Assembly (NCBI GenBank): GCA_041479965.1
Contig: JBGOZE010000002.1
Location: 1-47,237, forward strand
DNA: 47,237 bases
Source: Candidatus Nanoarchaeia archaeon
GTDB taxonomy: Archaea > Nanobdellota > Nanobdellia > Woesearchaeales > SM23-78
Direction: 5' to 3'
Position numbers and translations under genes: made by a program. How positions within the stretch are numbered: the first letter of the stretch is position 1; every line of letters starts with the position of its first letter. The notes beneath the pieces were generated by a model. The model had not been told where the DNA came from. It searched no databases and saw nothing but the letters and a program-made list of their open reading frames with translations. Positions 19,606-29,182 of this stretch are shown one piece after another.

Positions 19606-19822
19606 TCCCCGCCCCCGGACTCGAATTTCCCAAGCTTGCGAATGCTTTCTTAGTTCGGAGGACTTAACGAAGTTAATGTCCTCCTTAAGTTTTTCCCTTA
19701 AGGCTTTCGCAAAGGCTTACCAGGAACCTCTCGGGCACTGCTGACCGCATTTCATTCATACTCTTGCGAGTTTGTCTTGCGGCATCTACAGCCAAGTGCT
19801 CAAACCGTTAAGCTAGGCGGGG
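19606..19822 (-). tRNA. tRNA-Tyr(GTA) with two introns (about 50 nt after the anticodon loop; about 94 nt between T-stem and T-loop, position 53/54)
   Basis: Minus strand reads CCCCGCC-TA-GCTT-AACGGTTT-GAGC-A-CTTGG-CTGTAGA-[50 nt]-CCGAG-AGGTT-CCTGG-[94 nt]-TTCGAGT-CCGGG-GGCGGGG-A. The spliced product is exactly 73 nt with all stems paired. The C1:G72 pair is the archaeal/eukaryal Tyr identity pair. TATA (complement of 19847-19857) lies about 30 nt upstream. Confidence 0.85.
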
Positions 19823-21871: not shown

Positions 21872-21935
21872 TGCTGCTCTTTGCGAAGCTAGTATTTAAA
21901 AACTTTTTGACAGCCACACATACTAAAAAATCTGA

Positions 21936-22143
21936 TGGGGCCGCGGAGACTTTCGGGATTCTTGCACTTTTGGTAATTCGGAGGACTTAACGAAGTTAAT
22001 GTCCTCCTTAATTGCTTTTTACCAGATTTTTTGCAAAAATCTGTTCGAACTCCGGTTACTACCACCCCAAGGTAGAATGATAGTTGCTTCCAAGCAACCT
22101 CAAAAACAGAGGTTTTTGTTGGACCAAGCTACACTACGGCCCC
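21936..22143 (-). tRNA. tRNA-Pro(GGG) with two non-canonical introns (about 38 nt in the D-loop; about 94 nt in the T-loop near position 59/60)
   Basis: Minus strand reads GGGGCCG-TA-GTGT-AGCTTGGTCC-[intron]-(C)TA-TCAT-T-CTACC-TTGGGGT-GGTAG-TAAC-CGGAG-TTCGAA-[intron]-T-CTCCG-CGGCCCC-A. The acceptor, anticodon and T stems are all Watson-Crick. G37 fits Pro. TATA (complement of 22169-22180) lies about 32 nt upstream. The exact D-loop intron borders are ambiguous. Confidence 0.75.
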
Positions 22144-22180
22144 GTGTTTGCTTGCTAGAAATATGCTCTCTTTATATAGA

Positions 22181-28991: not shown

Positions 28992-29182
28992 CAGCCCCGT
29001 GGTGTAGCGGCCAAGCATACCGGACTTTGGAAGTGCAGGAAGAGAAGCCTGTGCTGAACACATCCGTTGACCCAGGTTCAAAAGAGATTTTTGCGAAAAA
29101 TCTCGTAAAAAGCAGGCGACATTCGCCTACGGCGAAGTCCCCTTACGAAAAGCAAGATCTCATGAAACTCCTGGCGGGGCTA
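28992..29182 (+). tRNA. tRNA-Gln(TTG) with two introns (about 31 nt canonical 37/38; about 87 nt in the T-loop near 59/60)
   Basis: AGCCCCG-TG-GTGT-AGCGGCCAA-GCAT-A-CCGGA-CTTTGGA-[intron]-TCCGT-TGAC-CCAGG-TTCAAA-[intron]-T-CCTGG-CGGGGCT-A. The spliced length is 73 nt. A1:U72 is typical of archaeal tRNA-Gln. There is one C27:U43 mismatch, so a Pro(TGG) reading cannot be fully excluded. Confidence 0.75.

Follow-up and report, generated by a model that had tools for sequence, protein, structure and literature searches.

The closest described system is the pre-tRNA-Pro(GGG) of Candidatus Micrarchaeum acidiphilum ARMAN-2, which carries introns at positions 53/54 and 59/60; the splicing endonuclease (EndA) of this archaeon cuts the 59/60 intron of tRNA-Cys in vitro (Fujishima et al. 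2011, PMC3239211). For some archaea, introns at non-canonical positions, among them 20/21 and 59/60, have been described, with as many as three in one gene, and in the Thermoproteales near-identical introns across tRNA species and positions were termed 'intron transposition' (Sugahara 2008; Fujishima 2010; both via PMC4090602). For DPANN lineages, with one Woesearchaeota MAG in the survey, alpha4-type EndAs and many disrupted tRNA genes were reported by Kaneta et al. 2018. Moreover, some DPANN genomes have incomplete tRNA sets, pointing to undetected disrupted genes, and broad EndA specificity was tied to an 'L3' insertion (PMC5829648).

The locus analyzed here lies within a window of 47,237 nt (the whole stretch of DNA that was analyzed) from a 1.14-Mb Woesearchaeota (DPANN) MAG, which is 92% complete and is called G000 below. 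It is very probably a single functional tRNA-Pro(GGG) gene with two BHB introns that are spliced by the standard mechanism of EndA and the ligase RtcB. It shares with the ARMAN-2 gene the DPANN host, the tRNA-Pro(GGG) identity and two introns with strict hBHBh′ motifs, of which one is at 59/60 and none at 37/38. In contrast to ARMAN-2, the other intron is located in the D-loop at 19/20 instead of 53/54, the 59/60 intron, at 94 nt, is long and has a repeat module as its filling, and EndA consists of one alpha unit that is extended at the N-terminus, in place of the three-unit epsilon2 enzyme. The Thermoproteales have in common with this system up to three BHB introns per gene, for example at 20/21 and 59/60, and intron sequences common to several tRNAs. 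However, they are thermophiles of another phylum whereas the present host is a mesophilic sediment DPANN archaeon, and here the shared sequence is also found in a 16S rRNA intron, tRNA 3′ trailers and intergenic DNA, partly in opposite orientation to the neighbouring genes.

The gene is located on the minus strand at 21936..22143, is 208 nt long including introns and covers tRNA positions 1-73; CCA is not encoded. Exon 1 (22124..22143, 20 nt) contains the acceptor 5′ strand, U8 A9, the D-stem 5′ strand GTGT and the D-loop up to G18 G19, and is the same or almost the same as the first 20 nt of intron-less orthologues. It is followed by intron 1 (22084..22123, 40 nt) in the D-loop at 19/20 and by exon 2 (22044..22083, 40 nt), which contains D-loop C20-A21, the D-stem 3′ strand, the entire anticodon arm with anticodon GGG, U33 and G37, a 4-nt variable loop, the T-stem 5′ strand and the T-loop up to position 59. 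Intron 2 (21950..22043, 94 nt) interrupts the T-loop at 59/60 and precedes exon 3 (21936..21949, 14 nt), which consists of U60, the T-stem 3′ strand, the acceptor 3′ strand and discriminator A73. All features are on the minus strand, and both introns were delimited by their BHB motifs and by the junctions of orthologues.

The acceptor stem, anticodon arm and T-stem had been claimed in a first-pass annotation of the sequence, and all three were found at exact coordinates on the minus strand. In the acceptor stem GGGGCCG (22143-22137) pairs with CGGCCCC (21943-21937), with the discriminator A at 21936, and in the T-stem CGGAG (22054-22050) pairs with CTCCG (21948-21944). The anticodon arm CTACC-TTGGGGT-GGTAG (22075-22059) is unbroken and, as claimed, has no intron at 37/38. 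The break in the T-loop (TTCGAA...T), which had been estimated at about 94 nt, is exactly 94 nt long and located at 59/60; a break in the D-loop is also present, with its length revised from about 38 nt to 40 nt and its position directly after G18-G19.

Splicing of the 20, 40 and 14 nt exons yields a sequence of 74 nt, for which ARAGORN returned the previously proposed identity, tRNA-Pro(ggg). Once both introns are removed, the canonical cloverleaf and the conserved nucleotides are regained, comprising by eye U8, A14, G18 G19, U33, G37, the T-loop TTCGAAT and A73. The ProRS identity set comprises G1-C72 and A73 together with GGG in a 7-nt anticodon loop with U33 and G37, and the spliced product has G1-C72, A73 and the loop TTGGGGT between CTACC and GGTAG. 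The computed minimum free energy (MFE) structure of the spliced sequence is not a cloverleaf; such a departure is common among mature tRNAs. In the genomic DNA the locus received no ARAGORN call and no Rfam match, neither at the gathering cut-off nor at E ≤ 10, which is not surprising for introns at non-canonical positions. Thus, like the genes considered by Kaneta et al. in DPANN genomes, it is a disrupted gene missed by standard finders. A TATA-box-like TATATAAA (22171..22178, minus strand), which ends 27 nt upstream of G1, is the probable archaeal promoter, and a T6 run (21925..21930, minus strand), which begins 5 nt past A73, is the probable archaeal terminator of the gene, both elements having been read from the flanking DNA.

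In the scan for intron borders every junction pair was tested, with the last six exon bases taken as four helix and two bulged bases and with the same pattern at the 3′ end of the intron. A BHB intron was defined by a 4-bp helix (H), a 3-nt bulge on each side and at least one outer helix (hBHBh′, or relaxed HBh′/hBH), and this structure was found for both introns. BHB modelling of the D-intron borders, which had been proposed as a check, gave one single best junction at G19/C20 with an intron of 40 nt. Its motif is GTA-GCTT[GG/T]CCAA ... TTGG-AAGC[AA/C]TAT (bulges in brackets, slash at the junction), with 4/4 pairs in H, 3 in h and 4 in h′. A D-loop BHB of this quality was obtained for 1 of 14,034 junction pairs in the gene, compared with about 1e-5 per pair in shuffled sequences, and this sole pair is the one which gives the D-arm of intron-less orthologues. 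The spliced D-arm reads GTGT / AGCTTGGCTA / TCAT with a U13-U22 mismatch, intron 1 being located between G19 and C20. For intron 2 the motif is CGGAG-TTCG[AA/C] ... CGAA[AG/T]-CTCCG, with 4/4 pairs in H, the 5-bp T-stem as h and an inner helix h′ of 10 bp in the MFE structure.

The precursor of 208 nt has an MFE of -79.8 kcal/mol (z = -6.6 vs dinucleotide shuffles); its MFE structure equals the centroid and shows the acceptor stem along with the cores of the two BHB motifs. In intron 1, three of the four H pairs have a probability of 0.85-0.87 and the fourth one of 0.14; the pairs of h′ reach 0.87-0.99. The very low predicted probability of its outer helix h (GUA/UAU) is due to the thermodynamic model favouring an over-extended anticodon hairpin, and the D-loop motif may work as HBh′ rather than as strict hBHBh′. 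The corresponding values for intron 2 are 0.64-0.71 for H and, within h, 0.99 for four of the five pairs and 0.45 for the outermost.

Orthologues were searched with the tRNA-Pro(GGG) gene as DNA query. Same-genus Pro(GGG) orthologues have 0, 1, 2 or 3 introns, all at identical junctions: none in G001, the D-loop intron only in G012, D-loop and T-loop introns in G014, D-loop, anticodon and T-loop introns in G003, and anticodon and T-loop introns in G011 and also in G029, the latter belonging to another family of the order. The 19/20 junction is common to G003, G006, G012 and G014, and the 59/60 junction to the orthologues of G003, G011, G014 and G029 as well as to at least 11 other tRNA genes of the present genome. 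Orthologues without the D-loop intron (G001, G011, G029) or without the T-loop intron (G012, G006) match the predicted splice, and the intron-less D-loops read GCTTGG-CTATCA, exactly as predicted. The intron-less G001 gene scored 44 bits against the Rfam tRNA family (RF00005, cut-off 29), with the same parse of the D-arm including the U13-U22 mismatch; with default filters the intron-less orthologues were missed in a joint multi-source scan and were recovered in a permissive scan. The spliced product is identical at 62/74 positions to the G001 gene and at 66/74 positions to the spliced G014 gene. Moreover, the D-intron helix covaries, with AAGC, GGGC or GAGC as 3′ strand that always pairs with GCTT, and at 59/60 the partner of TTCG is CGAA or TGAA (G-U) and that of TTCA is TGAA or one of a few G-U variants. 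For the D-introns of two loci (L013 and L015) the automatic choice of borders was wrong, and by eye their junctions agree with the others.

Additionally, Pro tRNA genes with a BHB intron at 37/38 were observed in three loci of the same genus (L013, L017, L018) and in two of other families of the order (L023, L025). Their spliced anticodon loop is TCGGGGA, that is, GGG with C33 and not the near-universal U33. Since G005 has also a separate Pro(CGG) gene (L015), these C33 genes look like Pro(GGG) orthologues.

With respect to the splicing machinery, one alpha-type EndA gene was identified on contig C25 of G000. It encodes 275 aa with an N-terminal extension of about 100 aa, matches PF01974 (99.9 bits) and, in the same ORF, PF02778 (N-terminal and catalytic domains), and among solved chains its product is closest to the catalytic alpha subunit of Nanoarchaeum equitans (E = 3e-39). 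Compared with the alpha4 enzyme of Methanocaldococcus jannaschii, its aligned catalytic part has no insertion, L3 being placed only approximately; within this aligned region it may differ from the EndAs to which the 'L3' insertion was ascribed. A second (beta) subunit was not found in this genome, the assembly of which is incomplete. RtcB is encoded by one gene (PF01139, 534 bits) on contig C65, and hence both the endonuclease and the ligase are encoded in the genome. When the mature sequence was compared by BLAST with the genome, which is 92% complete, no further Pro(GGG) gene emerged; Pro(UGG) and Pro(CGG) have genes of their own. CCT and CCC account for 61% of the proline codons in ORFs of at least 300 codons, and therefore the tRNA-Pro(GGG) gene must work.

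The following pathway is proposed. Transcription would probably be driven from the TATA box about 30 nt upstream and would yield a precursor with a length of roughly 210 nt and the oligo-T run at its end. Each junction of this precursor is predicted to fold as a BHB, a 4-bp helix between two 3-nt bulges: in the D-loop intron GCTT would pair with AAGC, and in the T-loop intron T-loop positions 54-57 (TTCG) would pair with CGAA near the 3′ end of the intron, with the T-stem as outer helix. EndA would then cut past the second bulged base at all four sites, and RtcB would join the exons of 20, 40 and 14 nt to the 74-nt tRNA decoding CCU and CCC and would probably also circularise the introns. The introns themselves, numbering 0 to 3 per orthologue within the genus, would be passengers.

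The locus might instead be a pseudogene, a former tRNA-Pro(GGG) gene wrecked by the insertion of a repeat, with the T-loop 'intron' being a landed mobile module that is never spliced. Copies of the 74-nt module located in intron 2 are found also outside introns, in spacers and beside protein genes, some with direct repeats of 20-45 nt, and because of these copies and flanking repeats the module does behave like an inserting element. Nevertheless, both BHB motifs are intact and the exon positions all retain cloverleaf pairing, in the sole Pro(GGG) gene of a genome with this high proportion of CCY codons. The 59/60 junction is also kept in other species and in another family while the interiors of the introns differ, and at least 12 tRNA genes of the genome have a 59/60 intron and cannot all be dead. 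The pseudogene reading is thus very unlikely, and the gene is almost certainly genuine and working. That its sequence is an artefact of assembly, with the long insert made by repeat-induced mis-joins, is vanishingly improbable: contigs of public sequencing runs do break at a repeated 35-nt block, where the depth rises, but two runs on sediment metagenomes, each from another study, yielded contigs that overlap at the block and give the whole gene with both introns and 0 differences, and the same junctions hold introns in orthologues of other genomes. A contig of low depth from run X4 lacks 34 nt of intron 1 (side 21 nt); it was left out of the analysis and is probably derived from a relative or from a repeat slip.

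Different borders for the D-loop intron were derived from the first-pass annotation, which gave none exactly. Here, exon 1 extends through ...GGTCCAACA, an intron of about 38 nt lies in the D-stem 3′ strand (22/23-24/25) and exon 2 begins with TT before the anticodon stem. This splice also yields a cloverleaf with a 4-bp D-stem and is called tRNA-Pro(ggg) by ARAGORN. However, by hand no BHB was seen at any of the three equivalent junction pairs, which are absent also from the scan matches listed, and the resulting D-loop matches no orthologue, as the intron-less genes have GCTTGG-CTATCA and the Pro(UGG) gene of the same genome has the D-loop AGCTTGGCTTA. Such borders, with exon 1 continued through ...TCCAACA, are therefore extremely improbable and were rejected; the mature tRNA would read GGUCCAACAUU with them and GCUUGGCUAUCAUU with the 19/20 splice.

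The arrangement of a double non-canonical interruption had been described as rare. This is true for archaea in general but not for the present genome: at least 12 credible tRNA genes, several with further introns and many long enough for more, were found in a simple scan to have a BHB intron at 59/60. A two-intron tRNA-Pro(GGG) has also been published for ARMAN-2 (PMC3239211). As 59/60 introns are plentiful here and non-canonical positions, the ARMAN-2 case and disrupted DPANN tRNA genes have been published, a gene of this kind is already known. The gene itself thus offers little that is new; the family of repeat-filled introns is moderately new. The 59/60-intron genes were located on contigs C13, C20, C21, C24, C27, C28, C52, C73, C76 and C78 of G000 and at 28993-29182 of the window. 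ARAGORN called only about two dozen tRNA genes genome-wide and some calls are apparently misparsed, and therefore non-canonical introns conceal a large part of the tRNA set. Gene finders that consider only 37/38 introns lead to incomplete tRNA sets for Woesearchaeota, which may wrongly imply loss of tRNAs or codon reassignment; in the present case the only decoder of 61% of the proline codons of the organism is invisible to ARAGORN and Rfam.

Intron 2 harbours a 74-nt two-hairpin module (21972..22045, minus strand), which is the best match of covariance model R1 (97 bits). Its first hairpin has 9 bp and is rich in A/U; the linker GTAAAAAGCA joins it to a second one of 12 bp (7 + 5 bp), in which an A is bulged. 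When 13 copies were aligned, 11 of the 21 pairs proved to be compensated, and for 37 distinct copies 96.9% of the cells pair, with changes on both sides in 18 of the 21 pairs, far above both controls. G-U pairs are no commoner than other mismatches (4 of 753 paired cells). No Rfam family matches the module. Model R1 detected 8 copies in this genome, 1 to 18 copies each in 9 of 14 same-genus genomes and none in 3 sister-genus genomes, the unpublished genome G002, which enters no other result, being counted among those without a match; elsewhere in the order three genomes gave single matches (E 6e-7 to 5e-4). Within the window, a copy with a 100% identical 35-nt block is located in the T-arm intron of the neighbouring tRNA-Tyr (19649..19721, minus strand), and a diverged copy that has retained the first hairpin and the linker in the 59/60 intron of tRNA-Gln (29082..29151, plus strand).

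The DNA search with the gene gave many matches to intron 2 alone. Its closest relatives, with 82-84% identity over 110-121 nt, are the Pro(UGG) intron of G003 and, in G007 and G014, the introns at 59/60 of a tRNA whose identity by eye is Ile(UAU). By the definition of Fujishima 2010, which requires about 80% identity or more between introns of different acceptor type and/or position, intron 2 hence belongs to a 'transposed' family of shared introns. The introns of orthologous Pro(GGG) genes are not the closest to intron 2 and have only the intron ends in common with it: the 59/60 intron of G014 is 33 nt long and consists of just the two ends of intron 2, and that of G003 has a different interior. 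Therefore, the junction is old and its filling exchangeable. An orthologue number of 0-3 introns together with swapped interiors at fixed junctions amounts to rapid intron turnover in a DPANN lineage with an apparently plain single-subunit EndA, and the common module provides a concrete handle on the change and spread of BHB introns.

Read by eye, the contexts of the module include the 59/60 introns of Pro(UGG), Ile(UAU), Ala(GGC), Gln, Leu and other tRNAs, the T-arm intron of tRNA-Tyr and D-loop introns, for example of a probable tRNA-Val(CAC) on C20. The module is found as well in tRNA 3′ trailers and in intergenic DNA, sometimes opposite to the neighbouring genes and with direct repeats of 20-45 nt. 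All 20 intron copies read are in sense orientation, and several non-intron copies are followed by T-runs. The module may be a selfish, structured repeat that persists at sites where splicing removes it or where it does no harm for another reason, a reading with about an even chance of being correct. Tentatively, and with slightly less than an even chance, it can be described as a largely genus-restricted mobile structured element that colonises any harmless site, namely BHB introns of many tRNAs, at three or more positions, as well as tRNA trailers, the 3′ ends of protein genes and an intron of the 16S rRNA gene. If so, the genus offers filled and empty sites for studying the remodelling and gain of archaeal tRNA introns. 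The near-absence of G-U pairs, which is odd for a constraint purely at the RNA level, suggests recognition of the hairpins in DNA or on both strands; the all-sense orientation of the intron copies points the other way. Introns can hold functional structured RNA, such as the C/D box sRNA in the tRNA-Trp intron of Haloferax. In the present module no C/D or H/ACA boxes were seen by eye. A functional RNA, acting as folding aid for long introns, stable circular RNA, protein-binding site or 3′-end hairpin, is a possible reading of the module. An IS200/IS605-derived (PATE) origin was rejected, as the G+C-rich hairpins on either side of the lone Y1 transposase gene (C10) bear no relation to those of the module; TnpB was not found in a search of this genome.

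Several individual loci were observed in the course of the analysis. Archaeal 16S rRNA BHB introns are spliced by the same enzymes as tRNA introns. The 16S rRNA gene (L112:186-326; G000 C61:6285-6425) contains an intron of 141 nt inside the conserved GGATTAGAT/ACCC, with an HBh′-type motif (TTAG[AT/A] ... CTAA[TT/A]) and a 5-bp inner helix, and this intron begins with a copy of the 74-nt module (79.5 bits). Between the genes of the ribosomal stalk proteins P0 and P1 (L114; G000 C28:4900-5250) the module is inserted in opposite orientation, with the 3′ end of P0 present as a direct repeat of 20 nt at its flanks, and is followed by an orphan copy of the old C-terminus; the P0 reading frame therefore ends in inserted sequence. 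The flanking direct repeats of two other copies (L140, L142) are 40-45 nt long. One tRNA gene of G003 (L130; C57:3024-3234), an orthologue of the gene on C20 of G000 (probably Val-CAC), contains the module twice, in a D-loop intron and in a 59/60 intron. In G014 (L014:254-329; C9) a sense copy is located directly 3′ of the Pro(GGG) orthologue, followed by a T7 run. On C78 of G000 (2100-2877; L113) tRNA-Ala(CGC), with G3-U70 and introns in D-loop and T-loop, and tRNA-Pro(CGG), with a 59/60 intron, are arranged in tandem, with the module on the opposite strand of the spacer. Finally, an intron-containing tRNA gene scoring 45.4 bits in Rfam is located at 265-381 of the window (minus strand); it was called Ala(agc) with a 44-nt intron by ARAGORN, which is doubtful because the loop CTGTCGA, read by eye, suggests Asp(GUC).
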